NCBI GenBank assembly: GCA_016866975.1
Contig: VGKP01000007.1
Span: 1-41,140 of the forward strand
Source: Candidatus Pacearchaeota archaeon
Lineage (GTDB): Archaea; Nanobdellota; Nanobdellia; Pacearchaeales; GW2011-AR1
Reading direction: 5' to 3'
Length of the DNA: 41,140 nucleotides
Positions within the stretch are counted from its first letter, which is position 1, and every line of letters begins with the position of its first letter. This document shows positions 3,326-41,140 of the stretch, in pieces. A program made the translations under genes and the position numbers. The notes beneath the pieces were generated by a model. It ran no database searches. It saw only the letters and a list, made by a program, of their open reading frames with translations, and was not told the origin of the DNA.

Positions 3326-4297
3326 ATGGACTTAAAAGATAAAAAACTGCTGTATTTACTTGATTTGAATTCAAGGGCGAAAGAATCAGAATTAGCAAAG
3401 CAACTTAATACCAGCAAACAAGTCGTAAACTACAGAATTAAAAAGTTAGAACAAGAAGGAATTATTAAAAAATTTCAGACTGTGCTTAACCTTGGTTCTT
3501 TGGGAGTCAATATCTATGCAAATGTTTATTTTAAGTTGACAGATTTGAATAAGAAAAATGAAAAAGAGTTATTAGATTTTCTATTAGATAATCCGGATGT
3601 AGGATATATTGGTCTAATGGGTGGAAGATATGACTTATCAATAGTTTTGACTGCTAAAAATCTACAAGAATTAGATAAAAGTTTAAGTAATATCGTAAAA
3701 CGTTTTCCAAATTACTTGCGAAACTACAATATCTCTTTAAGACTGGCAGGATACAAATTTCATAAAAAATATCTTGTTGAATCAAAAATTAAAGAAGAAA
3801 AGAAAATAATGCATAATGAATTCTCAGCAATCAAGTTAGATACAATTGATAAAAATATTTTACTAATGTTAACTGATAGTTCTAGAATACCCTTAGTAGA
3901 AATTAGTGAAAAAATAAATATTCCATTCTCTACCGTTAGAACAAGAGTTAAAAATCTTGAATCAGGGGGGATCATATCAGGATATTCGCTCTTGTTTGAC
4001 TTAAATAAAATCGGAATGAACAATTATAAACTTTTTATTAATGCTAAAGACAAATCTGAGGAAGTTAGCCATAAATTGTTTTCTTTTGCAGAATCACATA
4101 AAAATATTATTTGGTTTTTTAAAACATTGGGCGAACACGACTACGAATTTAGAATTGAAGCAGAAAGTCTAGAGAAATATCAGGAAATTATTAAGGAAAT
4201 TCGCTCTGAATTTGTTGATGCATTAGAAGAAATAGAAACATTGATAGTATTCAAAGAATTAAAAGAAGATTATGGTGCAATTTTGAGTAAGAAATAA
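3326..4297 (+). CDS. Lrp/AsnC-family regulator with tandem duplicated wHTH+RAM units
   Basis: Two copies: LDLKDKKLL..NSR...ELAK..S.Q.V.YRIKKLE..GII and LD.IDK.IL..L...SR.P...IS.........RVKNLE..GII. Confidence 0.85.
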   Translation: MDLKDKKLLYLLDLNSRAKESELAKQLNTSKQVVNYRIKKLEQEGIIKKFQTVLNLGSLGVNIYANVYFKLTDLNKKNEKELLDFLLDNPDVGYIGLMGGRYDLSIVLTAKNLQELDKSLSNIVKRFPNYLRNYNISLRLAGYKFHKKYLVESKIKEEKKIMHNEFSAIKLDTIDKNILLMLTDSSRIPLVEISEKINIPFSTVRTRVKNLESGGIISGYSLLFDLNKIGMNNYKLFINAKDKSEEVSHKLFSFAESHKNIIWFFKTLGEHDYEFRIEAESLEKYQEIIKEIRSEFVDALEEIETLIVFKELKEDYGAILSKK

Positions 4298-4531
4298 GAA
4301 AGTTCAGATTTTGGGCTAGAGTAGAGAGAAATTTTGCTTTAAACGTACCTCGAAAAGACAAGGTAGATAAGTTCAGAAACAATCAGAGTGAAAATGCACC
4401 AGATAGATTTGTCGCCTATACTAAAGATGAAAAAGGCAAGAAAACTATTTTGAATTAAAACTATTGTTTAAGATATATTATTCTAAGATCAAAAAGGAAG
4501 AAATTAAAAATAGCAGAGTTAATCTAAACTT

Positions 4532-4639
4532 ATGGAGTTTATCAGAGCTTTTGAGAACCTTACAAGAAATGATGTAAAAATAGCCGGCGGTAAAGGAGAA
4601 TATCTTTTAACTGAGATGGAAAGAACGCCTCAGGGATAA
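4532..4639 (+). pseudogene. N-terminal remnant of PEP synthase / PEP-utilising dikinase
   Basis: MEFIRAFENLTRNDVKIAGGKGEYLLTEM resembles the PpsA N-terminus (..F..L...DV..AGGKG..LGEM); stops after 35 codons. Confidence 0.6.
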
Positions 4640-4779
4640 GTACAATCCCACATTTGTCTGGATTATAAATTTCGTCAAGTGCTTTCTCCAGTGTATCCTC
4701 TGAGATATTAAATATCTGATTTCTCATGTAAAAATCCTTACTCTAAAGTGTTTAATTGTATGTAGTTTGATATGTTAAA

Positions 4780-4852
4780 TGGGGTATCTGGGAATCGCAC
4801 CCAGGCCGCCGCCACCCCATGGCGGAATCCTACTAAGCTGGACCAATACCCC
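4780..4852 (-). tRNA. tRNA-Pro(GGG)
   Basis: Cloverleaf: GGGGTAT/ATACCCC, GTCC/GGAT, CCGCC/GGCGG with loop ATGGGGT, CTGGG/CCCAG; CCA not encoded. Confidence 0.9.
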
Positions 4853-5064
4853 ATAAGGGAACTACGTTGCCCTTATCAACCCTCCTTATAATACTCCATA
4901 AGGGAACTACGTTGCCCTTATCAACCCTCCTTATAATACTCCATAAGGGAACTACGTTGCCCTTATCAACCCTCCTTATAATACTCCATAAGGGAACTAC
5001 GTTGCCCTTATCAACCCTCCTTATAATACTCCATAAGGGAACTACGTTGCCCTTATCAACCCTC
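4851..5064. repeat. Perfect 45-bp tandem repeat, 4 full copies plus a 34-bp partial copy
   Basis: Unit CCATAAGGGAACTACGTTGCCCTTATCAACCCTCCTTATAATACT at 4851, 4896, 4941, 4986, 5031. Confidence 0.95.
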
Positions 5065-5114
5065 TCAAAAATGTAGATGGGAGGGTTTTTAAATGAATTC
5101 TATTCGTTTCTTAT

Positions 5115-6242
5115 ATGAGATTTGAGATTATAGCAAAAGACGATAAAACAAAAGCAAGGACAGGAAAATTGATGACAAAATCAGGGCCTATTGAAACACC
5201 ATTCTTCATGCCTGTGGCTACAAAAACTGCTGGAAAGCATATATCTAGTGATGACTTAGAGATTATGCAAGCTGATACCATAATTTCAAACTCTTTTATA
5301 CTGTTCTTGAGACCAGGAGTTGAAGTGATAAAGAATAAAGGTGGCATTGCTAAGTTTATGGCCTATCACGGAAAAGTTTTCACAGATTCTGGAGGATTTC
5401 AGATGTATTCTCCAGCATTATACTTAAGTTCTGAAGAATTTGGAGTAAATTTCAGAAACCCTTATAGTGGGGAAAAAATATTCATGACACCTGAAGAAAA
5501 CATGGAGATACAAATTGGACTTGGCAGCGATGTTGCAATGTGTCTAGATACAATGCCTATGATAGAAGAATCAAAAGAATCAATAAAAGAGGCAGTGAGA
5601 AAGACTACTCTTTGGGCCAAGAGGTGCAAGAAGCATCATGATTTCGTCCAAAAAGATATTCCTGATTCTAATAGGCAGATTCTGTTTGGAATAATTCAAG
5701 GAGGTATTCATAAGGATCTTAGAGAAGAATCGGCCAGAGAACTCTTAGCCATTGATTTTGAAGGGTATTCAATTGGAGGATTAGCATTGGGAGAGCCTAA
5801 AAAAGATGAATATAGAATGATTGAAACTGTCAAGAGTATAATTCCTGAAAATAAACCTATATATCTTATGGGTATAGGTCATCCTTTGGAATTGTTGGAA
5901 GCAATCTCCAGAGGAATAGATATGTTTGATTCTCGTTTTCCTACAAAATCAGCAAGACATGGGACACTATTTACATCATCTGGAAAAGTCACAATAACAA
6001 ACCTTCAATACAAAAATGACTCTAATCCTTTGGATCTTGAATGTGATTGTTTTGTATGCAAGAAATATGGCAAAGCCTATCTAAGGCATCTTCTCATAGA
6101 GGAAGAACCTGTAGGTATGAGATTTGCCAGCTATCATAATCTCTTCTTTTTGCAGAAACTAATGAGGGATGCGCGGGAAGCGATTAAGGCAGGGACATTT
6201 TCAAAATTGCTTGAGAAGTATAGAAAGATTTACACGGAATAA
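5115..6242 (+). CDS. tgt: tRNA-guanine transglycosylase, bacterial (queuine) type architecture
   Basis: TP.FMPVAT, TDSGGFQ, CLD, GIIQGG, IGGL..GE, YLMGIG, DMFDS..PT, CxCxxC..H zinc site; 375 aa, no C-terminal PUA domain. Confidence 0.9.
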   Translation: MRFEIIAKDDKTKARTGKLMTKSGPIETPFFMPVATKTAGKHISSDDLEIMQADTIISNSFILFLRPGVEVIKNKGGIAKFMAYHGKVFTDSGGFQMYSPALYLSSEEFGVNFRNPYSGEKIFMTPEENMEIQIGLGSDVAMCLDTMPMIEESKESIKEAVRKTTLWAKRCKKHHDFVQKDIPDSNRQILFGIIQGGIHKDLREESARELLAIDFEGYSIGGLALGEPKKDEYRMIETVKSIIPENKPIYLMGIGHPLELLEAISRGIDMFDSRFPTKSARHGTLFTSSGKVTITNLQYKNDSNPLDLECDCFVCKKYGKAYLRHLLIEEEPVGMRFASYHNLFFLQKLMRDAREAIKAGTFSKLLEKYRKIYTE

Positions 6243-6628
6243 TTATTCTTTAGTTTTATGAATGCATAGAAAAATAAGTAAGAGGTTAATGAAAAATATC
6301 ATATAGATTACAGACCTTGATGATGTGTACTTCTCTTAATTAATGATAAAACTGGGATTGTAGCAAAATATTGAAACTCATGAAGAAGATTTTGAAAGCC
6401 TCAAAGAAGGCTTACAAGGTTTTTGAAACTCTTAAAGATTATTTACAGAATTCGATTTTCAACTATTTTTCTTTGAAAAAATAAATATTAATAACTACAT
6501 AATAGTAACAAATAGAAAGATCTAAATAGACTTCGATTCAGCTATTTTAATGAAGAAAGACAAATCCCAATTAGGATACGTTAGTAATTGGATTAATAAA
6601 AGAAGTCAGAAACCAGAGGTAAAATAAA

Positions 6629-7039
6629 ATGGCACTCTTAACAAGAATATTTGGAAAAAGAATACAAGGAGAAGACTTAGACAACGTTTTAAAAAATCTA
6701 GGGCATAGATCCGCTGAACAAGAAATGCGTCCACTGGAAAAGTGGACAGCTTCATATCATGGTAGACTTAGAACTAAAGTTAAAGGTGATGGAATCGAAG
6801 TTGACTTATATCTTTTTAGAGAAATGTACCATAATAATGATGGAACTATAGGTTTAGATTTTGAAAATGGAGGCACACCTATGCAAACAAGTTGCGGAGG
6901 AAGACGGTCTAGAGAAGAAAGATTTTATACCCGTGATGTGAAACATTATCAAGGATTAATTCCATATTCAGACTTAGCTGAGGAACTTACATCCTTGGTC
7001 GGTCATAAAAGCGCTTTAAATAGAAGTGCTAAAAAATGA
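6629..7039 (+). CDS. Hypothetical protein
   Basis: 136-aa ORF with GAGGT RBS upstream; no recognisable motif. Confidence 0.6.
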   Translation: MALLTRIFGKRIQGEDLDNVLKNLGHRSAEQEMRPLEKWTASYHGRLRTKVKGDGIEVDLYLFREMYHNNDGTIGLDFENGGTPMQTSCGGRRSREERFYTRDVKHYQGLIPYSDLAEELTSLVGHKSALNRSAKK

Positions 7040-7151
7040 GAACTAATACCTGCAGCCATTGGCAAGAATCCAATGAAGGACTTTAATAATAAAGATTTTA
7101 AAATATTTTAATAAATCCAATTATTATGCGGCTCTTGTCTCATTTTTTCAT

Positions 7152-7718
7152 TTAGTGCTCCTTGAGATACTTGATTAGGTCTTGACTCATGAGAGGTTCT
7201 CCTTTCACTATTGCATAACGATATGGCAGAATTGTAGATTCAACGTCATTTATCCTTATCTCCACTTCATCCTGGAATTTAATTTTATCAAATGAAGTCC
7301 CTTCTATTATCTTTTTCACTGTATAGACAGCATTGTCCGTGCTCATCTGCATCTTACCTATATTAAAAGATGGAAGGCCTGGAATGAATCTTGTCAACTC
7401 TTCTTGTGTTCTTTTTCTCGGAGGATTGTCTCCCAGGATGCCTCCGAAGATGAAATATTTGAAAGGTCTTGCATTTTGAGGTGAGAGCAAATGAGGAGAT
7501 TCAGGATCTAAGATACAGGCATCATTAAGACCTAGTTCTTTGACTGATTCCTTGGAGACTTTTCCCAATGAAGAGAGTGTTTCTCGATCTTTCAAGTCTT
7601 TGACGTTTGTGAAATGGAGATTTTCTTTTCCTACTATCTTGGAGATGTGTGTGTATTCTATGAGTGTCCATTCACCTACTTGTGGTTCTAAGTGTTCTAT
7701 GATGAAGATTTTATTCAT
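7152..7718 (-). CDS. SPOUT-class SAM-dependent methyltransferase, Sfm1-like
   Basis: IIEHLEP..W..IEY.HI, LDP, FIFGGILGD.PPR.RT, QMSTD.AV; start set at MNKIF. Confidence 0.75.
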   Translation of the reverse strand: MNKIFIIEHLEPQVGEWTLIEYTHISKIVGKENLHFTNVKDLKDRETLSSLGKVSKESVKELGLNDACILDPESPHLLSPQNARPFKYFIFGGILGDNPPRKRTQEELTRFIPGLPSFNIGKMQMSTDNAVYTVKKIIEGTSFDKIKFQDEVEIRINDVESTILPYRYAIVKGEPLMSQDLIKYLKEH

Positions 7719-7772
7719 ACTTGTGTATAATAAAACTAATTTAAAAATCATTCGTGATCAATATTAAGGAAA

Positions 7773-8249
7773 CTACTTTTTGTTCTTAGTAACTTTCTCC
7801 CACCATGTTCCAAATCCCCAAACTTTTCCTGTATCGCTATATGCTAGGACGAGAAAAGCGAATAGATAGATGATATGATCATCGATGAATGGATGGTTTG
7901 TTGGTGGAAGAAGTGCAGACCACATGAGTAAAGACATTGCAGCTCCTGAAAAACATCCTAGACGTGTAGCAATTCCAAATGTGCAAGATATTCCTATTCC
8001 TAAAAGACCAAGCATAAATAACCAGGCTACGATGTCATAGGGGGCAATCGTATTGTAGAACTCTTTTAATGGGCCATGGACAGCTTTTGATAGGAATCCG
8101 AGTGTTGGAGATACGCCGTTTATCCAAGCTTTACCAGATTGAGTGGCAAATCCTAGTCCGAACAATTTATCAAAAAATGCCCAGAGAAATAGAAGACCGA
8201 GCGAAATTCTTAAGAGCGCTAAATAAACCTCTTTTTTTGTGTGCTTCAT
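7773..8249 (-). CDS. DoxX/DoxD-family membrane protein
   Basis: LLRISLGLLFLWAFFDK, GLLGIG..TFG..TR.G, several TM segments. Confidence 0.8.
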   Translation of the reverse strand: MKHTKKEVYLALLRISLGLLFLWAFFDKLFGLGFATQSGKAWINGVSPTLGFLSKAVHGPLKEFYNTIAPYDIVAWLFMLGLLGIGISCTFGIATRLGCFSGAAMSLLMWSALLPPTNHPFIDDHIIYLFAFLVLAYSDTGKVWGFGTWWEKVTKNKK

Positions 8250-16052: not shown

Positions 16053-16232
16053 TGCGGGAGGGAGGATTCGAACCTCCGTAGGCACTAAGCCACAGGATTT
16101 CCTAAGGAAACCAAGGTTTCCTTTTGGATCAACCTTCCTTTGAAGAAAGGTTCACCCATCCTGGTTGGATTCCGCTCTAACGAGCGAATGACTTCTTAAG
16201 TCCTGCCCTTTTAACCGCTCAGGCACCCCCGC
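16053..16232 (-). tRNA. tRNA-Leu(TAA) with 96-nt intron at 37/38 (intron 16099-16194)
   Basis: GCGGGGG/CTCCCGC acceptor, CAGGA-CTTAAG|A-TCCTG anticodon arm, long variable arm, GGAGG-TTCGAAT-CCTCC; BHB with CUUA/UAGG central helix. Confidence 0.92.
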
Positions 16233-16845: not shown

Positions 16846-17685
16846 ATGGAAACACTTAATCAATTAAAGAATGAATTACGTTTGAGGGGATTCTCTCCCC
16901 TCACTGTGAGAAATTATTGTTTCTTTGTCGATAAGTTTCTTAAAAGCAGCAATAAGAGTGACTTGGATGTGAATATTGATGATGCAAAGACATATCTTTC
17001 TGGCTTATTCGAAACTAAATCTAAAAACACTATTATGCTTGCGGCTGCCGCTCTGAAATTTTACTTTGTAGAGATACTAAAGAAAGATTTTGCACAAGTT
17101 AAGATGCCTAAGAAGGAGAAAAAACTACCGGAAGTCCTTTCTAAAGATGAGATAAGGTTACTTATTAATTCTACAGACACTGAGAAATCAAGACTTATGA
17201 TATCTCTTCTTTATTCTTCAGGACTAAGAGTATCTGAACTTGTCAATATGAAAGTGCAAGAAATCAATTTCAAGGAATTTACTGGATGGGTAAGAAGAGG
17301 TAAGGGATCTAAAGACAGAATGATTGTACTTTCCGAGGGACTTGTTAAAGATATTGAATCATATCTTAAAGATAGGAATTATACTTATCTTTTTTCCAAA
17401 GATAAACCCTTGACTACCAGGAATATACAGAAAATAATAATGGGCCTTAGGAAGAGGACTGGCATACAGAAGAAAATAACCCCTCATACTTTCAGGCATA
17501 GCTTCGCAACTCATCTTCTCGAGCAAGGAACGGACATAAGGATAATACAGGCTATGCTCGGGCACAGCTCCCTCAATACTACCCAGATATATACACATAT
17601 CTCTGGAGAACAGCTTAAGAAAGTCAAGAATCCCCTCGATCTCCTGCAGGTTCATACCTCTATGCCGCAACAAATCCCAGATTAA
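16846..17685 (+). CDS. xerA: Archaeal Xer-type tyrosine recombinase
   Basis: N-terminal LRLRGFS..T.RNY; GLRVSE, GKG.K.R, HTFRHSFATHLLE.G, LGHS...TT..YTH (R-K-H-R-H-Y). Confidence 0.9.
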   Translation: METLNQLKNELRLRGFSPLTVRNYCFFVDKFLKSSNKSDLDVNIDDAKTYLSGLFETKSKNTIMLAAAALKFYFVEILKKDFAQVKMPKKEKKLPEVLSKDEIRLLINSTDTEKSRLMISLLYSSGLRVSELVNMKVQEINFKEFTGWVRRGKGSKDRMIVLSEGLVKDIESYLKDRNYTYLFSKDKPLTTRNIQKIIMGLRKRTGIQKKITPHTFRHSFATHLLEQGTDIRIIQAMLGHSSLNTTQIYTHISGEQLKKVKNPLDLLQVHTSMPQQIPD

Positions 17686-35414: not shown

Positions 35415-36341
35415 TTATTTCTCTTCATCATCTATTTTTAAGGGACTTTCTTTTGTTCCTAAAGGATCCTTGAACTCTTCCTCGACTTTCTCGGCTCTTT
35501 CTTGCTCTTCTGGAGTCAGATCACTTAAGTCAATCTCTATTTCTGCCTCTTTTTTCATCTTTTCCAAAAGCTCTAAATTTTGTTTTTCATAGAGATGTTT
35601 TAGAAGTATCCAAATCTCCGAAAAATGTCCTTCCTGCTCAAGCCATACTTTTTGTTGGTTGTCAAGATGTAGAAGTGGAACGAATGTAGCGACTCTCTCT
35701 TCAGTGCTCTTTCCTGCAAGCTCTGAAAATGGATACGGGTTTTCCCTGCTTTTGAAAATTTCCCTCAATCTTCTGTATACTCCTGATATTTGATCTTTGA
35801 GGTTGATTTTTGTTTTAGGAAGAGATAAAGCTGTTTCAAATTCCTGCTGCCTCTTTACGACAATCCTTCTTATCCTCCTGTTTTCAGTGGTAATTGCTTT
35901 CCCTAAAGCTGACATCAGCTCTTCCAGAGTGACCTTCTTAAATCTAGGCAATGGAGTCCTTGCGATAAGTCCTGGCACCTCGCCTTCGAGCTCAATTCTT
36001 TCTTGATGGTATTTTTTCTCTTCTTTTTTCCCAAAAAGGACCTCGTCCAGTCCTGGAAGGTCGTGATGTAGAAGAATCTCTGATTTCATTCTGAGGAGAA
36101 TGGCTGCAGCAAGAAGGACCTTGCTCGATATGAAGAAATTCTCTTCTTCCAATTCTTTAATTCTCTCAAGATATTTTTGCGCAAGCAGAGAAATGTCTAT
36201 ATCCCAGGGTTCTAGCTGCTCAGTGTTTATTAGATCATAAATTATGGACTGCCAACTCAGTGTGTCCGAAAATAAAAGACCGTGTATCTGTTCCTGACCT
36301 ACTTTTTGCACAGCGTGCCTAGGCTTATCCTCTTCATCCAT
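35415..36341 (-). CDS. scpA: Segregation and condensation protein A (kleisin)
   Basis: LI....LEPWDIDI..L...YL, LLAAAILLRMKS..LL, R..TL.EL..AL, TFVPLLHL. Confidence 0.88.
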   Translation of the reverse strand: MDEEDKPRHAVQKVGQEQIHGLLFSDTLSWQSIIYDLINTEQLEPWDIDISLLAQKYLERIKELEEENFFISSKVLLAAAILLRMKSEILLHHDLPGLDEVLFGKKEEKKYHQERIELEGEVPGLIARTPLPRFKKVTLEELMSALGKAITTENRRIRRIVVKRQQEFETALSLPKTKINLKDQISGVYRRLREIFKSRENPYPFSELAGKSTEERVATFVPLLHLDNQQKVWLEQEGHFSEIWILLKHLYEKQNLELLEKMKKEAEIEIDLSDLTPEEQERAEKVEEEFKDPLGTKESPLKIDDEEK

Positions 36342-36420
36342 TGCGACGTATATAAGAAGTTCTTTATATGCCTTGTCATCAGATTAGCAATTATGTTTTC
36401 ATTATGAAGTTACAACAGAC

Positions 36421-36435
36421 CGAAAGGTTTAAATA
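36421..36435 (+). promoter_or_regulatory. BRE-TATA promoter facing the structured region at 36470
   Basis: CGAAAGG-TTTAAATA. Confidence 0.6.
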
Positions 36436-36469
36436 TACTTCCTGTATAGTAATACTATCACCTCTTTTT

Positions 36470-36649
36470 CCCAGGAGAGGACGTTTCATCGCTCTTTTTG
36501 ATTGATGGGACCTCCTCTCTATGGGTTTATTACTCAGTGTATAACCTTACAAGTTATATAATGACCATACTCGTCTAGAATCGAGAAGATGGAAACTTAT
36601 TCTGAGTATAAAAAAGGCGAAATAGAGGCAGTGTTCGCGATACTGCCTC
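36470..36649 (+). ncRNA. Candidate structured RNA or leader (long hairpin + three-way junction + hairpin)
   Basis: ~20-bp hairpin 36470-36525 with G.U pairs; TACTCAG/CTGAGTA enclosing two hairpins; 10-bp hairpin 36625-36649. Confidence 0.45.
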
Positions 36650-37050
36650 CTAAAGATAAAAAGATACGTGTTCATGGCTAGGAGCGTGCTATGAGTGGGA
36701 GAGAATTCTTAATTTGGGCGAACAGATGCAATGCAGTGAGCCAGTTAATGCCTGTTATCTTCTTTTTCGATTACGTTAGTTCCGAAAAATTCCGACCTCG
36801 AAAAATAAATTTGGGAAAAAAGCGAGCCGAGCAGTTTTCCGTTAAATTCCTGTTAGTTGCGTCGCCAGCTTATGAGCGAAGCACAGTTCTGGCGACCTGC
36901 ATCCGCGGAGTAATTTTTAGGGACGTCAAAGAGCGTTAGCGATACATCAAGTAAAAGAATAAAGAGCTTTGGTGCCGATTAGCTTATTAACTTTATAGTA
37001 GTTATTAATAGAAAGATTTATAAAATAATCAATTTTCTTATTGTTACAAA

Positions 37051-37530
37051 ATGACATTAGTTATGAAATATGAAAAAGGGTATTGCCCTCGACCTAGTGA
37101 AGTATCGGTAAGACTACTACCTGTTTTAGCTTCTGAAGCTATTCCTGTAAAAATATCAGATATAACTAATCGTACATATATGGGAAGAGAGTATCATGTT
37201 TTAGGTGTTATGAATTACAGAGGAAAAGATTATAACATATTACTATCTGAGAAAGGAATTGCAAGAGCGGAAGTACATACTTCCACTATTTTTAATGCAA
37301 TGGGTACAGATTATGTTGACGGAATTTTGCCTTTTCTTGAAGTTGGTAGGGAGCTAGCTCCAGGACATTCATTTCCAATTGCCAACTTAGCCTTTGAACC
37401 TGATTCTGAAAGACATCAATTTCTAAGAAGAATAGCACAAAGATTTAAAAGTGAAATGCCTAGACTTGAAACATTAGCACTAGCACATCAACCAGATGGA
37501 GAGCGTGATTGGGTTTATGAAATCCTTTAA
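37051..37530 (+). CDS. Hypothetical protein
   Basis: 159-aa ORF with upstream GAAAGATTTATAAA TATA box. Confidence 0.7.
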   Translation: MTLVMKYEKGYCPRPSEVSVRLLPVLASEAIPVKISDITNRTYMGREYHVLGVMNYRGKDYNILLSEKGIARAEVHTSTIFNAMGTDYVDGILPFLEVGRELAPGHSFPIANLAFEPDSERHQFLRRIAQRFKSEMPRLETLALAHQPDGERDWVYEIL

Positions 37531-37583
37531 GCCCCAAAGCCCTTCTTTTTTCTAAGTCCCTAAAAATTATTACAACTAAAATC

Positions 37584-37649
37584 GCGATTATCTGAAGTTT
37601 CATCAAGTGAAATTTGGGTGAGGACTGCAAGTCCGAAATAGATAATCGC
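37584..37649. other. Three-way-junction-forming intergenic element
   Basis: GCGATTATCT/AGATAATCGC enclosing TTTCA/TGAAA and GGAC/GTCC hairpins. Confidence 0.55.
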
Positions 37650-37852
37650 TGTTATCAGCCCAGAGCCTAAGGCGAGAGCCCGCAAGACATGACGAGGAGC
37701 GAAGCAGAGAAAGTAAAATTTTAATTGTTAATTATAGATAATACCGAAGGCTCTATTTTTTCAGAGCGGGGGAGCCTCTACTATTCAAGTAGTAACTTAA
37801 TAATAGTAAAAATAGATAATTTTATAAAGGAACAGAATATTCTTCGGTTTAT

Positions 37853-38374
37853 ATGAAAACCGAAAAAGATATATTTGGCAAAGCATTACATCATAATATG
37901 AATAAAGAAGATAAACCAAAATTTGATTTGCCAAAAAGAGATGGTTCTCCTAGTTTGAACCATAGAGATTTTTTTGTTAATACAAAAACTGGAAAACCTT
38001 ATTTTGATGCATATATAGGTTTCTTATTAAAAAGAAAAGAGGAAGTCGAATCAGAAGATACTTCTAGAATAGATGAATTTTTGAAAAAAAAAGTCGGTTT
38101 GAACTATGAAGAATTTGTTAATTATTCTAAACCAGAAGAAATTGTGGAAGATTCATATGGATTGTTTAGAAGAAAATCTATTAGAAGATCTTTGTTTAAA
38201 TTTAGATCAAGAGTATATTTAGAGGCATTATGTGACCTTGATGAAAGAGGCGAAGATATTCAATTAGTTTTAGATGATATTAGAACGGAATATGTTCCAA
38301 CACTGAAGAAACATGAAGGAAAAGAACCAACCTTTGAAGCAATTTATGCCGCATTAAAAAAAGTCATAAATTAA
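37853..38374 (+). CDS. Hypothetical protein
   Basis: 173-aa ORF, AT-rich, convergent with and overlapping the 3' end of the 38364 gene. Confidence 0.7.
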   Translation: MKTEKDIFGKALHHNMNKEDKPKFDLPKRDGSPSLNHRDFFVNTKTGKPYFDAYIGFLLKRKEEVESEDTSRIDEFLKKKVGLNYEEFVNYSKPEEIVEDSYGLFRRKSIRRSLFKFRSRVYLEALCDLDERGEDIQLVLDDIRTEYVPTLKKHEGKEPTFEAIYAALKKVIN

Positions 38375-39383
38375 AATGTTGTGAATTATATTTTGCACCC
38401 CCTTTAACTTCTTTCCAACCAGCTTTTTTTGAGAACAATTTAAATGCTTCGATCGATTGTTTAACAAAATTATCGGGTTCATATGGGCCTCCAACATCAG
38501 TTTCTAGTTTTGCGTAGTGTCCCGAATCCGCATTATATCTTTTAATTAAACCATCTTTTATGGTGACTTCTCCAGCACCATAGACATCTAAACCTCTTGC
38601 CAAAGTAGAATGAGGGAGAGTTGTTTTTCTTTTATCAATTTTCTTGTGTCTTTTCCCACTCCCCAAATCAGAAGACATTTGATACATATCATGGATCATA
38701 CCAAAAAAATTTCCTGCTTCATCAACCCCTCCTCTATTTCCAACAATAAAATTTCCTTCTTTATCAACTACCCAAATATACTCTCCATCTGCAAGTTCAT
38801 TAAAATGTTCTAATTTTCCATTTTTAATATGAGAATTTACTTCAATTACTCTCCCACCTCCTGCGGCGTGAGGTTCATAAAATTGTTCCTCGTAAGAATT
38901 TCTTCTATTAATAGTTTCACCTCTGTGATCTTTTCTAAACTTATTAAAATCTTCTGAGATATATGGTAAAATTTTACCACGTTTAGTTATCATTCTTTCT
39001 ATTCTCTCTTGGACCGGAGTGTTTTTATGTCCTGGAAAATCTTTTGATTCGTTTAGGTAGCCTAATCCAGTCGATTTTCCAGTTTTTTTATCCACTCTTT
39101 TATCTATCGGTTCAGAATCAGGGGATACGTGATAAGGGATCCAGTGATGCTCTTTTGCAATTTCTTCAGCTTCTTCCAATCTTTTTTCTAATCTTTCTCC
39201 ACCAACAAAAAACATCGCAGAAACTAAAATAAAAACAATTCCGAAAATAAAACTAAATCCAGAAGAAATATTTGAAACTCCTACAACTGCTCCAGTAATA
39301 TCTGTTTTTGAATTCAATAAGAAGAAAATTCCAATAAGTAAAAATGTTAAACTCAAAAACCTAAAGTGTTTTTTCTTCATCAT
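38364..39383 (-). CDS. Two-TM ITGAV-anchored protein with C-terminal putative ADP-ribosyltransferase-like toxin domain
   Basis: TM-ITGAVVG-TM N-terminus; C-terminal YIWVVDKEG.F.VG...HSTLARG.DV.GAGEV.I.DG.I..YN.DSGHY. Confidence 0.55.
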   Translation of the reverse strand: MMKKKHFRFLSLTFLLIGIFFLLNSKTDITGAVVGVSNISSGFSFIFGIVFILVSAMFFVGGERLEKRLEEAEEIAKEHHWIPYHVSPDSEPIDKRVDKKTGKSTGLGYLNESKDFPGHKNTPVQERIERMITKRGKILPYISEDFNKFRKDHRGETINRRNSYEEQFYEPHAAGGGRVIEVNSHIKNGKLEHFNELADGEYIWVVDKEGNFIVGNRGGVDEAGNFFGMIHDMYQMSSDLGSGKRHKKIDKRKTTLPHSTLARGLDVYGAGEVTIKDGLIKRYNADSGHYAKLETDVGGPYEPDNFVKQSIEAFKLFSKKAGWKEVKGGAKYNSQHFNL

Positions 39384-39665
39384 ATAATGAATAAAGAAGA
39401 AAGGTTAAAAAGATATCGTATTGCGTGAGCGAAGCAAACGCAATATGGGCTCCCCGGCTCGTTTCTAACAATTAAAATTTTATTTCTACTAACATCGCAC
39501 TTTAACAAAGTTTTTCTGACTATATAAAAATAATATTATTGCCGAAAAATTTGGGGAAAACATGAGCTGAATGTTTTCCTGTTAAAGTGCTGTTATGCGA
39601 GGGTAAAATTCTGAGAAAATTTTAAGCGCAGCGCCCCCGAGGATTTTCTTAGAAAATTCGAAGCG

Positions 39666-40285
39666 TTTGTGAGTGTGCGTGGGTGGTCGGGGGCTTGGAG
39701 GAGGGCAAGCCAGTTAATAGTATAGAGAGATTGTTGCGAGTGAATATTAGTAGGTGGGGGCTGACTTATTAGTTTCAGTTAGGCGGAAGTTTGTGCGAAG
39801 ATTTATAAATAAGAAAATCATTATTAATTTATCATGGCAAAAAAAGAAGGAACTCAAAGACCAATTTTAGTTACGATTATATGCATTCTAGGATTCATTG
39901 GATTTCCGTTATCATTAATTGCAGCAGTTATTGGAATGTCTGCAGTAAGTTTAGTTCCGAATGTAGAGCTTATGCCTTTATGGTATTCTATCTTTGCGAT
40001 AATTCTTGCATTGCTATATCTTCCAGCACTTATCTACATTTGGAAGATGAAAAAAATAGGATTGATAGCCTATACTGCTTTAGCAGTTATTGATTACGCA
40101 GTTGGTTTTGCTTCTGGATTTGCGAGTATTTCTGGTTTAGTTGTTTCTGCAATTTTTATAGGCCTGCTTTACACACAATTTAAGAAGATGAATTAGTCCG
40201 TCGTGTCAGCCCCCACTGTTCTTTCTTTAGAAATTATTTTTTATGTCGAGCGACAATCTCCATACTAGGGGAGCACACTCACAAA
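39666..40285. repeat. Imperfect inverted repeat arms bracketing one gene
   Basis: GTGGGGGCTGAC 39754-39765 / GTCAGCCCCCAC 40205-40216; TTTGTGAGTGTGC 39666-39678 / GCACACTCACAAA 40273-40285; GAGATTGTTGC 39727 / GCGACAATCTC 40250. Confidence 0.75.
39834..40196 (+). CDS. Small 4-TM membrane protein
   Basis: RP..VTIICILG..G start followed by hydrophobic helices. Confidence 0.75.
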   Translation: MAKKEGTQRPILVTIICILGFIGFPLSLIAAVIGMSAVSLVPNVELMPLWYSIFAIILALLYLPALIYIWKMKKIGLIAYTALAVIDYAVGFASGFASISGLVVSAIFIGLLYTQFKKMN

Positions 40286-40381
40286 TGTCGTAAAACACAA
40301 TGGATATAGAAATTCTTTAGAATTAATATATCTATATAGGATATATAGTGACCTATAAATAGCTAATAGGTTTGAAAGAAA

Positions 40382-40483
40382 ATGGATGCTAGAGAAGAAG
40401 ATTTCTTGAATAAGCTTCACGAGCATCTTAAACTGAGAAATTATTCATCTGTTAATGCCTTTCTTAGGGGCTTATCTCTTTAA
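40382..40483 (+). pseudogene. Truncated N-terminal (SAM-like) domain of a Xer-type tyrosine integrase
   Basis: MDAREEDFLNKLHEHLKLRNYSS parallels xerA LNQLKNELRLRGFSP in this same window; homology stops after ~23 codons. Confidence 0.6.
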
Positions 40484-40730
40484 TCTGGCTACTGCAAGAA
40501 AAGATCTTAGGGGAGATAACGTTTCCATACCTAAAGTGGATACTTTTAGAAAGAGATTATTAAGGAATGAGATAAAAAGCCATTTTGCATAACCCCACAC
40601 TTATATTCTCACTGAGTAAGTTCCCCTCTCTATGGGTTTGAAACTGATTACGTTTAAGGTTGATTCTTCAATCCTTTCCTAACCTTTGTGAAGGCGGAGA
40701 GGCTATCCGAATCGCATAAAGAGGTGATTG

Positions 40731-41140
40731 ATGTTCATTCTTGACAACCATAATACTCTTAAAGCGAAAATTCTTGCCTTTGTAATGAGCTTGGTAAAAA
40801 AGCTGATGGTCACTACTTTGTTGGCTTCTTCTATTTTTGGAGATATTACTGCCCCCCTGCCTGCTAGACAAAGCCATTCATTGACAGGAGAGAGCTATAA
40901 TGTAGTCGCTCCGCAGACTCGATTGAAAGATTATGTATATATAGGACATTTCAACGATTCAAATAAGAATGGCAAAAAGGATTTTGAAGAACCGATGGTA
41001 TTCCAGCCATATTGGGAAAGACCGGTATTGTCTGAAGGACATGTAGTGAATATCATACTTCCTCATCAAGAATCTCAAGTCAGGATGATTGTGAAAGAGG
41101 CGTATAGCAGGTCAATATTGTTCGATTTCAATGTCATCTC
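40731..41140 (+). CDS. Probable secreted protein, 3'-partial, with DxNxNG Ca-binding-like loop
   Basis: GAGGTGA RBS, ATG 40731, frame open to window end, hydrophobic N-region, FNDSNKNGKKDFEE. Confidence 0.65.
   Translation, partial: MFILDNHNTLKAKILAFVMSLVKKLMVTTLLASSIFGDITAPLPARQSHSLTGESYNVVAPQTRLKDYVYIGHFNDSNKNGKKDFEEPMVFQPYWERPVLSEGHVVNIILPHQESQVRMIVKEAYSRSILFDFNVI

Follow-up and report, generated by a model that had tools for sequence, protein, structure and literature searches.

How genes next to scpA came to be enclosed one by one in inverted repeats (IRs), beside what appears to be the start of a tyrosine recombinase gene, is the question raised by this locus of a Candidatus Pacearchaeota archaeon. 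The window (the whole stretch of 41,140 nt that was analysed, from contig VGKP01000007.1) had been described in an initial annotation as containing an integron- or shufflon-like platform on which promoter-containing genes are captured, inverted or swapped by a XerA-like recombinase. A cassette-type, integron-like platform tied to an Xer-family tyrosine recombinase is still the best reading, and the locus is probably an integron-like cassette array, now decayed, on an integrated 4.1-kb island. It looks like a variant integron rather than a gene-flipping switch. Archaeal integrons have already been described (Ghaly et al., 2022; PMC9668308), and the island is best read as a variant of such systems.

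The island is a 4,111-bp insertion (36529-40639, right repeat copy included) bounded by a perfect 15-bp direct repeat that has just two copies genome-wide (Table 1). A comparison of the scpA-adjacent locus among relatives, suggested in the initial annotation, found the same site without the island in two congeners, G016 and G008, where the gap between scpA and the next gene is 0.42-0.56 kb versus 4.4 kb here. After removal of the island in silico, the site aligns collinearly with both congeners, and in G008 the empty site has one copy of the 15-bp repeat with matching left and right flanks. A 10-bp IR (TTACTCAGTG at 36530, CACTGAGTAA at 40610) lies directly internal to the 15-bp repeats. The repeat restores a conserved small-RNA-like gene (36446-36528) at its 3′ end; in this gene, a BRE/TATA-like box, GAAAGNTTTAAATA, is followed by about 80 nt kept in 10 congeners, and a long covarying hairpin is predicted for it (alifold -32.7). 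This gene has no Rfam match, and a search of 36300-40800 against Rfam 15, at E <= 10 and at the gathering threshold, gave nothing relevant.

Table 1. Features of the scpA-adjacent island and its target, in window coordinates.
Feature	Coordinates	Strand	Basis or remark
Small-RNA-like gene, conserved	36446..36528	+	Upstream of scpA; 3′ end is the insertion target
Left 15-bp direct repeat CCTCTCTATGGGTTT, attL-like	36514..36528		Two genome copies; empty site in G008
Inserted island (cassette array and integrase remnant)	36529..40624		Gap lengths; collinearity with G016 and G008
Three-way-junction module, weakest copy	36771..36857	+	Covariance model R1, E 0.009
L-arm, cassette 1	36911..36924		Pairs with 37548-37561
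Cargo ORF, cassette 1, 159 aa	37051..37530	+	No family match
R-arm, cassette 1	37548..37561		Ends 15 nt short of next module
Three-way-junction module	37577..37656	+	Covariance model R1, 61.6 bits, E 2.7e-13; in alignment A3
L-arm, cassette 2	37711..37776		17-bp IR and GAGCGGGGGAGCC block
Cargo ORF, cassette 2, 173 aa	37853..38374	+	Convergent with 339-aa ORF
Cargo ORF, cassette 2, 339 aa	38364..39383	-	N-terminal membrane segment; C-terminal domain without family match
R-arm, cassette 2	39448..39485		Ends 4 nt short of next module
Three-way-junction module, best copy	39490..39597	+	Covariance model R1, 68.7 bits, E 3.1e-15
L-arm, cassette 3 (blocks A, B, C)	39666..39765		Three collinear blocks
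Cargo ORF, cassette 3, 120 aa, multi-pass membrane protein	39834..40196	+	Sequence features
R-arm, cassette 3 (blocks C′, B′, A′)	40205..40285		Complements of L-arm blocks
Region upstream of integrase remnant	40286..40381	+	DNA alignment
Integrase 5′ remnant (33-codon stub), about 22 homologous codons	40382..40483	+	DNA alignment, tblastn
Right 15-bp direct repeat, attR-like	40625..40639		Same basis as left copy

Within the island, the repeat unit consists of a 95-nt three-way-junction module bounded by AAC...GTT, a hairpin domain, an L-arm, the cargo and an R-arm, after which the next module begins. The spacers between cassettes, which had been called highly structured, fold no better than shuffles as single sequences (z -0.5 and -1.9); the structure is borne out instead by covariation, since they hold copies of one conserved module. 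The three-way-junction fold is common to 19 aligned module copies, with 95.3% of cells paired (35-55% when the partners are slid), a covariation score of 0.427 versus 0.06-0.12 in slid controls, and compensatory changes in 14 of the 29 pairs. The strand that folds is set by two conserved G.U/G.T pairs, and the loops are of the GNRA type (GCAA). By eye, the helix of the module is closed by AAC...GTT; a stem of 10 bp, a branched tip and an asymmetric bulge (3 versus 1 nt) can also be made out. The AAC is a sharp edge, with unrelated DNA immediately 5′ of it in near-identical modules; on the opposite strand, the same edge reads GTT followed by foreign sequence and resembles an attC crossover. Past the GTTA end, conservation runs into the hairpin domain, and in some copies to about 300 nt, which a minimal attC does not explain. 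The claim that the locus has no classical attC sites holds for the IR arms; the candidate sites, overlooked at first, are these modules, whose layout is attC-like. As a side observation, the commonest stem arms, GGGATATAC / GTATATCCC, resemble dif half-sites of P. abyssi (PMC2958812); since this stem covaries, the resemblance is no more than a lead.

The modules are widespread. In a family sample with one representative per genus, they were found in 77 of 151 genomes. A genome carrying them has from 1 to 18 copies, arranged in runs on one strand at spacings of 0.5-4 kb; many copies lie at contig ends. A looser pattern scan of genome and viral collections gave mostly chance matches, of which those with complementary stems were kept. 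Around the weakest copy of the island, the segment 36793-36860 has 90-96% identical matches across many genera, and a further module-like stretch without cargo lies at about 36700-36760, with 36712-36758 widely matched too. Near-identical modules have been found in both Bacteria and Archaea. Modules are also present on a scaffold of Kerfeldbacteria (CPR). Here, four or five ORFs share one orientation and the integrase gene diverges from them; a module follows four of the ORFs (from a 4-nt overlap with the stop to 111 nt beyond it), and 31-47 nt separate a module from the next ORF start. This array has the layout of a classical integron, in which the modelled strand corresponds to the bottom strand.

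At the end of the island, the region 40286-40381 contains a junction motif common to intact array-adjacent integrase genes, and the degenerate 5′ part of a module can be read directly at about 40296-40350. The stretch 40286-40447 aligns with the upstream region and 5′ coding end of the intact integrase gene of congener G011 (score 98, shuffles 26 +/- 4.5, z = 16), and tblastn with the array-adjacent integrase of G061 matches aa 2-18 to the stub (65%, E 0.003). Protein searches with the stub found no Pfam domain, even when it was read across the frameshift; BLASTP against three integrases gave E >= 0.1, and tblastn with XerA gave E 0.43. The integrase N-terminal stub of the initial annotation is upheld by the DNA alignment as homologous to the 5′ end of an accessory-clade gene, and is the 5′ remnant of an array-associated XerA-like integrase gene. 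Its position is that of the intact integrase in G000:C22, G011, G237, G061, G018 and G112; in all six, as in the Kerfeldbacteria scaffold, the array is followed on the same strand by the integrase gene. Among five arrays inspected on longer contigs, two lacked a nearby integrase. In the tree, the array-adjacent integrases of G061 and G237, from other genera, join the accessory clade of the congeners (support 99/99), and the vertically inherited host XerA forms a clade apart from the accessory integrases (100/100). The intact xerA at 16846, initially proposed as the recombinase, belongs to the host clade. The stub is not a remnant of the host xerA and falls with the array-adjacent integrases in a separate clade. 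The accessory integrases are XerA-like, 267-273 aa long and without the additional domain around patch III that is specific to IntI. They are present in only 7 of 17 congeners, and their co-occurrence with modules within the genus is weak (modules in 4/7 genomes with the integrase versus 3/10 without).

Could the locus be an ordinary CALIN, in which the modules are attC sites of the known IntI-dependent system, reported earlier from Nanoarchaeota, and the adjoining XerA-like integrase is only the integration enzyme of the island, with no part in cassette exchange? The AAC...GTT boundaries, the attC-like module layout and the canonical arrangement in Kerfeldbacteria are what such an array would show. 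The near-identity of modules across domains is also in accordance with the near-identical attCs reported by Ghaly et al. (PMC9668308), who found IntI to be absent from most archaeal integrons. On the other hand, no protein of this genome reaches the cut-off of the IntI model TIGR02249: its two tyrosine recombinases (271-279 aa) score 107-110 bits against a cut-off of 265, with the match split in each and profile positions 185-236 skipped. Moreover, the integrase occupies the array end in a fixed position and orientation at seven loci, and the one published Pacearchaeales attC, a compact 58-nt classical site, is unlike the modules in length and sequence. An ordinary CALIN is therefore considered rather unlikely.

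A different possibility is that modules and arms act as RNA, with long transcripts folding into the three-way junctions and the L:R stems around each cargo having a part in processing or stability, as the processing stems of archaeal rRNA operons do. Conserved G.U pairs and GCAA loops, with covariation that is strong on one strand, would suit an RNA, as would the T.G wobbles of the arm pairing, which fall on the same strand. The cargo, however, lies in either orientation to the modules (29 sense and 28 antisense in archaeal arrays), and no Rfam family matches. In addition, a widely conserved BRE/TATA-like sequence is situated between module and ORF, so that the ORF's own transcript would lack the module, and a conserved promoter before the module is absent, since conservation begins abruptly at the AAC. 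Such an RNA role is decidedly improbable. The cassettes appear to carry their own promoters, and their cargo is varied, reaching 9 kb in some arrays and including multi-gene blocks. None of the cargo proteins of the island could be assigned by Pfam, PHROGs, NCBIfam or PDB sequence searches. For the 339-aa protein, which had no match in any of these four, an Atlas search gave hypothetical clusters only and a metagenome scan found no relative; its N-terminus recurs in small ORFs elsewhere and its C-terminal domain in a 1676-aa ORF of G003. The convergent pair of 173-aa and 339-aa ORFs is kept in the order-level relative G088 (68% nt), and homologues of the 120-aa ORF in G134 and G381 are in contexts without modules.

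The inverted repeats themselves are the cassette-specific L and R arms of the array. All those reported for the two original units are present, and both units are indeed individually enclosed; a third cassette, around ORF 37051, is bracketed likewise and had been overlooked. In this cassette (cassette 1), the arms (TAATTTTTAGGGAC, 36911-36924 / 37548-37561) form a 14-nt perfect IR reached by 0/200 position controls. In cassette 2 (unit 1), arms of 20 nt with one mismatch, 17 nt of them perfect (37711-37730 / 39466-39485), are accompanied by a second block, GAGCGGGGGAGCC (37764) with GGCTCCCCGGCTC (39448), also with one mismatch. The IR of cassette 3 (unit 2) consists of three collinear blocks, A, B and C. 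Block A is TTTGTGAGTGTGC (39666), whose reverse complement lies at 40273; in block B, GAGATTGTTGC at about 39727 pairs with GCGACAATCTC at about 40251 (one T.G included); block C is GTGGGGGCTGAC (39754), with the reverse complement at 40205. Across the genome (806 kb), the 17-nt arm-1 core has no copies besides its own pair; the same is true of unit-2 blocks A and C, and each of the two GC blocks of unit 1 is found a single time. When the island was simulated 300 times under a first-order Markov model, the longest exact IR had 16 nt and 17 nt was never reached. Isolated IRs of 13-14 nt appeared in 10-30% of these simulations, so unit 2 draws its weight from the nesting and collinearity of its blocks and from their conservation in other genera.

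Among 25 inter-module intervals with cargo, 10 have an L/R IR that at most 2 of 200 controls match. The L-arm usually lies about 50-90 nt past a module, and many R-arms stop no more than about 5-10 nt before the next; by raw counts of exact 12-mer IRs, arrays are not separable from control regions, and only IRs placed relative to modules tell the two apart. A search of 401 genomes for an "empty" arm hairpin, with block C at most 60 nt from its complement, found none. Such arms enclose other cargo in other genera: the cassette-2 arm type surrounds other cargo (a 265-aa ORF) in G359, and the cassette-3 arm family surrounds 0.4-1.8 kb of differing cargo in G274, G128, G124 and G283, with a block A that varies from genome to genome, yet matches between the two arms within each genome (covariation). 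Since IR-bracketed cargo recurs in this way with different contents, the units are real modules.

These arms also bear on the view that the modules are non-autonomous mosaic repeats (MITE, BIME or BOX-like) in the intergenic DNA of mobile islands, and the IRs opposite repeat fragments with no role in moving cargo. The repeats are indeed mosaic in make-up: chimeric modules have been found, with breakpoints inside the module that fit plain homologous recombination. Frequent copies at contig ends, and solitary, sharp-ended copies of 140-300 nt in unrelated bacterial bins, point the same way. However, the module ends lack terminal inverted repeats and target duplications, the arms are unique to each cassette yet complementary inside it and regularly placed relative to modules, and the modules are strand-consistent and end at an integrase, all of which makes this view very unlikely. 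Least credible of all is a shufflon or invertible cassette, in which XerA would act at each IR pair to invert or swap promoter-containing genes, as first suggested from whole genes flanked by IRs and compatible with the two cargo orientations seen across different cassettes, because five assemblies of the population from different samples (window, ENA, JGI and two Logan runs) are 99.9-100% identical and collinear with a single orientation and no cassette-level recombination event, the dissimilar arms offer no common site for one recombinase, the host XerA is outside the clade of the island's integrase, and inversion would change nothing with the promoters inside the IRs. Split tRNA genes, a CRISPR array, a group II intron and a hammerhead ribozyme were also considered and discarded, with no supporting motif or match.

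The reading of the locus as a decayed integron-like array suggests the following mechanism. The island, probably by means of a tyrosine integrase of its own, would have entered the small-RNA-like gene at its 3′ end, with duplication of 15 bp. Each cassette would be a cargo bracketed by its specific inverted arm pair, with a module of about 95 nt between cassettes. On one of the two DNA strands, the module would form a three-way junction with AAC...GTT as its closure, laid out like an integron attC, in which a stem leads from the R″ box to a variable branched tip and a second stem back to the R′ box. From this architecture, we infer that the modules are recombination sites and the cassettes individually mobile; the crossover would take place at the GTT end, catalyzed by the dedicated clade of XerA-like integrases without an IntI-specific domain. 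Excision as a circle would bring the R-arm, module, hairpin domain and L-arm of a cassette into one continuous stretch, and the arms might then provide the basal stem of one large folded site. With its integrase cut down to about 22 codons, the island copy would be frozen. As a more tentative proposal, these arrays might represent a second, IntI-independent integron-like lineage common to DPANN archaea and CPR bacteria, with a XerA-derived integrase, large folded single-strand sites (a three-way junction and cassette-specific closing arms) and promoter-bearing cassettes free in orientation.

The biological significance depends on which reading holds. If accessory XerA-like integrases act on folded modules, integron-style gene capture is not bound to IntI, and a major route of accessory-gene flow would exist in ultra-small DPANN and CPR symbionts, across domains too. 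The covariance model and the integrase clade together provide a practical search handle for such arrays, which break assemblies and are overlooked by IntI-based searches. If the modules are ordinary attC sites, the island is a well-resolved archaeal CALIN example on an integrated island.

Several known systems share parts of this design. The hallmark of shufflons, both orientations of an IR-bounded segment, was not seen among the five assemblies, and neither cassettes nor modules show the target duplication or shared termini of MITE and IS elements. Integrative elements that use the 3′ end of tRNA or small-RNA genes are similar in their terminal integrase gene, in the 15-bp repeat and in the empty sites of relatives, but the cargo here is a repeat-punctuated cassette array and the integrase is truncated; the split integrase of SSV-type elements has no counterpart, as no integrase-like frame follows the left repeat or appears with the two ends joined. 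The pdif (dif) modules of Acinetobacter plasmids enclose single genes in inversely oriented sites and have a link to Xer-family recombinases; the same conserved 28-bp XerC/XerD site lies at both ends. The island likewise holds individual genes between inversely oriented elements with an Xer-family link, whereas its arms differ per cassette; neither a shared 11-6-11 Xer site nor a common dif-like core was found in the arms. The closest likeness is to integrons and CALINs, with which the island shares tandem arrays, on one strand, of sites that are conserved in structure, variable in sequence and bounded by ...AAC and GTT..., varied small accessory genes between the sites, a tyrosine recombinase at one array end, the bottom strand as folding strand in the integron frame, and near-identical sites in Bacteria and Archaea. 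The tandem one-orientation array with an integrase at one end is that of classical integrons; mostly promoterless single ORFs co-oriented away from the integrase are seen in the Kerfeldbacteria array only, and not in archaeal arrays. Unlike integrons, the system has a XerA-like integrase of 267-273 aa without the IntI-specific domain, a site made of a 95-nt three-way junction followed by an extra conserved hairpin domain, and cargo that is bracketed by 12-40-nt cassette-specific inverted arms, lies in either orientation, has apparent promoters of its own and includes multi-gene blocks; in this window, the whole array is carried on an island inserted as one piece.

The comparison of the scpA-adjacent locus called for by the initial annotation has shown that the island is absent in the two closest congeners, where scpA lies 0.42-0.56 kb from the post-island gene (4.4 kb in the window), and in a three-genome alignment the window minus 36529-40639 is collinear with both. 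A perfect 15-bp direct repeat (CCTCTCTATGGGTTT), present at 36514 and 40625, is otherwise absent from the genome and has a 10-bp inverted repeat just inside each copy; the congener G008 has a single 15-mer, whose left flank matches the window's left flank and whose right flank matches its right. These alignments indicate that the whole locus is one insertion and that the island entered as one block. The target is the 3' end of a ~80-nt conserved hairpin-forming stretch that has a promoter ahead and looks like a small RNA gene (see table), and the 3' end of such genes is a typical attB choice of tyrosine integrases. This small-RNA-like gene has a predicted long hairpin with covariation and no Rfam match; its 5' part (AUCACCUC) is similar to the 3' end of 16S rRNA. 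Elsewhere in the window, a tRNA spanning 180 nt with a long intron (16053-16232, minus strand) is called by Rfam and not by ARAGORN, and a tRNA-Pro at 4779-4853 is called by ARAGORN and missing from the Rfam gathering scan.

When the island was compared by BLAST with 400 genomes from its order, it was the non-coding spacers, not the genes, that gave short 85-98% matches in large numbers; these were spread over many genera and often lay at contig ends. Three of the spacers (at about 36790, 37577, and 39490), which match no Rfam family, are copies of one module. Its 19-copy alignment yields a three-way junction closed by AAC...GTT, with pairing in 95.3% of cells (35-55% with partners slid), a covariation score of 0.427 (0.06-0.12 in slid controls), and compensatory changes in 14 of 29 pairs; two G.U (G.T) pairs, both conserved, set the folding strand. 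With a covariance model derived from the 19 copies, three modules are detected in the island (the 36771 copy weakly, E 0.009), and the genome has further ones where contigs 16 and 22 end. Among 151 family genomes, each standing for one genus, 77 carry the module; copy numbers range from 1 to 18, and the copies usually form same-strand runs at a spacing of 0.5-4 kb. Two Kerfeldbacteria (CPR) contigs and one IMG/VR contig also contain near-identical modules, as do bins labelled Chlorobium, Desulfobacteraceae, and Gammaproteobacteria. In these near-identical copies, the likeness begins sharply at AAC, the upstream sequence being unrelated, and on the other side runs through a second hairpin domain, reaching about 300 nt in total in some copies. 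The sequence GAGCGAAGCA has three plus-strand copies in the island (36874, 37697, and 39427) and one elsewhere in the genome; each island copy lies within the hairpin domain past a module, two of them in a local hairpin loop.

All the inverted repeats initially listed are present in the sequence. In the 806-kb assembly, the 17-nt core of unit 1 (ORFs 37853 and 38364) and blocks A and C of unit 2 (ORF 39834) occur as these pairs only, and the GC blocks of unit 1 once each. An exact 17-nt inverted repeat appeared in 0 of 300 Markov simulations of the island; lone 13-14-nt repeats are frequent by chance in such simulations, and the case for unit 2 therefore rests on its nested layout and on conservation elsewhere. 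The parts of the arrays follow one another as module, hairpin domain, L-arm, cargo, R-arm, and next module, with the L-arm usually about 50-90 nt past a module and the R-arm ending about 5-10 nt before the next one in many cases (4-15 nt in the island). The arm pair is matched by at most 2 of 200 position controls in 10 of 25 cargo-containing intervals (eight loci), and arm sequences are different for every cassette. The enclosure of individual genes by inverted repeats, as first proposed, is real and general in the system, recurring with other cargo and in other genera: four further genera have arms of the unit 2 family, enclosing 0.7-1.8 kb of different cargo, and the relative G359 has the unit 1 arm type around a different gene. 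Block A of unit 2 varies between genomes, yet its two arms match within each genome, one difference being a T.G wobble on the module strand. To judge from these comparisons, what the arms conserve is complementarity, not a common protein-binding sequence. Block A has its outer edge at 39669, where two Logan contigs from different samples both begin, and one of them stops at 41140, the exact end of the window contig; both positions are reproducible assembly break points, probably due to repeated sequence.

Features of the island, its target, and the contig-22 locus
Feature	Position	Description
Small-RNA-like gene	36421-36528	divergent from scpA; BRE/TATA-like box, then ~80 nt kept in 10 congeners
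Cassette of ORF 37051, bracketing inverted repeat	36911-36924 / 37548-37561	perfect 14-mer
Unit 1 outer arms	37711-37730 / 39466-39485	20 nt, one mismatch, 17 perfect
Unit 1 GC block	37764 pairs with 39448	nested within outer arms
Unit 2 arms	39666-39765 / 40205-40285	blocks A, B, C, collinear
Contig-22 locus	G000 (genome holding the window) contig 22, 9081-10744 (L359 1450-3116)	intact 271-aa accessory XerA-like integrase abuts ffh (SRP54 gene)
Contig-22 cassette		138-aa membrane-protein gene bracketed by AGTAAAAACGAAGCCCC / GGGGCTTCGTTTTTATT; module at contig end

Regarding the cargo, the convergent pair of 173-aa and 339-aa genes (38078-38909), with no family assigned, is kept as a pair in the order-level relative G088 (68% nt), and the C-terminal domain of the 339-aa protein is also found within a 1676-aa ORF of another relative, G003; the two genes are possibly a toxin-partner pair. 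An AT-rich promoter-like stretch at 36985-37024 (…AGAAAGATTTATAAA…) has 80-98% matches directly ahead of ORFs in many of the order's genomes, and one more match on contig 2 of the same genome.

The genome encodes two tyrosine recombinases, XerA (16846, in the window) and a paralogue on contig 22, and neither reaches the IntI model, their matches skipping the IntI-specific region. Of the 17 genomes of the genus, nearly all have a XerA orthologue and 7 have the paralogue, which mostly lies at contig ends. In the tree, the host XerA proteins form a clade of their own (support 100/100), apart from the paralogue clade, and the array-adjacent integrases of G061 and G237, from two other genera, fall inside the latter (99/99). 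An integrase lies directly downstream of a same-strand array on contig 22 and in the relatives G011, G237, G061, G018, and G112; those of G018 and G112 are long branches, the former sister to the accessory clade and the latter on the host-XerA side, both placements being unsure. Two other arrays on longer contigs have no integrase nearby. The contig-22 integrase has an arm-bracketed cassette and a module upstream on the same strand, and its locus appears to be an intact sister to the decayed window island. Protein searches with the 33-codon stub (40382-40483) gave nothing; 40286-40447 can be aligned with the G011 paralogue gene over its upstream region and first ~22 codons (z = 16), and tblastn with the G061 protein gives E 0.003. 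On the strength of these two matches, the stub, rightly suspected of being an integrase remnant, is the 5' remnant of an array-associated integrase, at the place where intact elements carry that gene.

The best-supported reading, which we consider reasonably probable, is an integron-like cassette exchange in which the accessory integrase would act in a structure-specific manner at the GTT end of the module. In the excised circle, R-arm, module, hairpin domain, and L-arm would be joined end to end, with the arms closing one large folded site. Cassette movement was not observed directly: homologous recombination could also yield chimeric modules, the island of the window entered as one block, and five assemblies of the population are identical and collinear at the island. 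An alternative in which modules and arms act as RNA is disfavoured, since the cargo is orientation-free and there is no conserved promoter upstream of the module. Finally, the initial annotation was borne out in its integron-like part and not in attributing inversion to the host XerA: the array-adjacent integrases of G061 and G237 belong to a clade apart from it, and the collinearity of the five assemblies gives inversion no support.

Read on the opposite strand, the layout is that of an integron, with the integrase transcribed away from the array, then cargo, then a folded site that ends in GTT, with foreign sequence beyond. This plan is clearest in a 130-kb Kerfeldbacteria scaffold (MHKF01000018.1) bearing bacterial secE-nusG-L11-L1 genes, where a truncated integrase, 35% identical to the paralogue and interrupted beside a DDE transposase gene, is followed by four or five co-oriented short ORFs. 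Its four modules (3400-7800) lie on one strand, each after one of these ORFs, at positions ranging from a 4-nt overlap with the stop codon to 111 nt beyond it, and the array adjoins the bacterial ribosomal protein genes. In this layout, the conserved wobble pairs lie on the bottom strand, the one that is recombinogenic in attC. The scaffold thus places the module family in CPR bacteria with a canonical integron layout. An IntI-independent integron lineage common to DPANN and CPR organisms seems less likely than not. Archaeal integrons and CALINs are already on record, Pacearchaeales and Woesearchaeales being among the groups that have them, and attCs nearly identical across domains have been reported (PMC9668308). 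The system is likely a variant of that known archaeal kind. It differs in lacking IntI, in the closing arms of its cassettes, and in its cargo, which in archaeal arrays is 29:28 in orientation, with own promoters apparent. The site, set beside attC by layout, is branched and of larger size and includes a further conserved domain, whereas the sole Pacearchaeales attC that has been tested is of the classical type, compact and 58 nt long.
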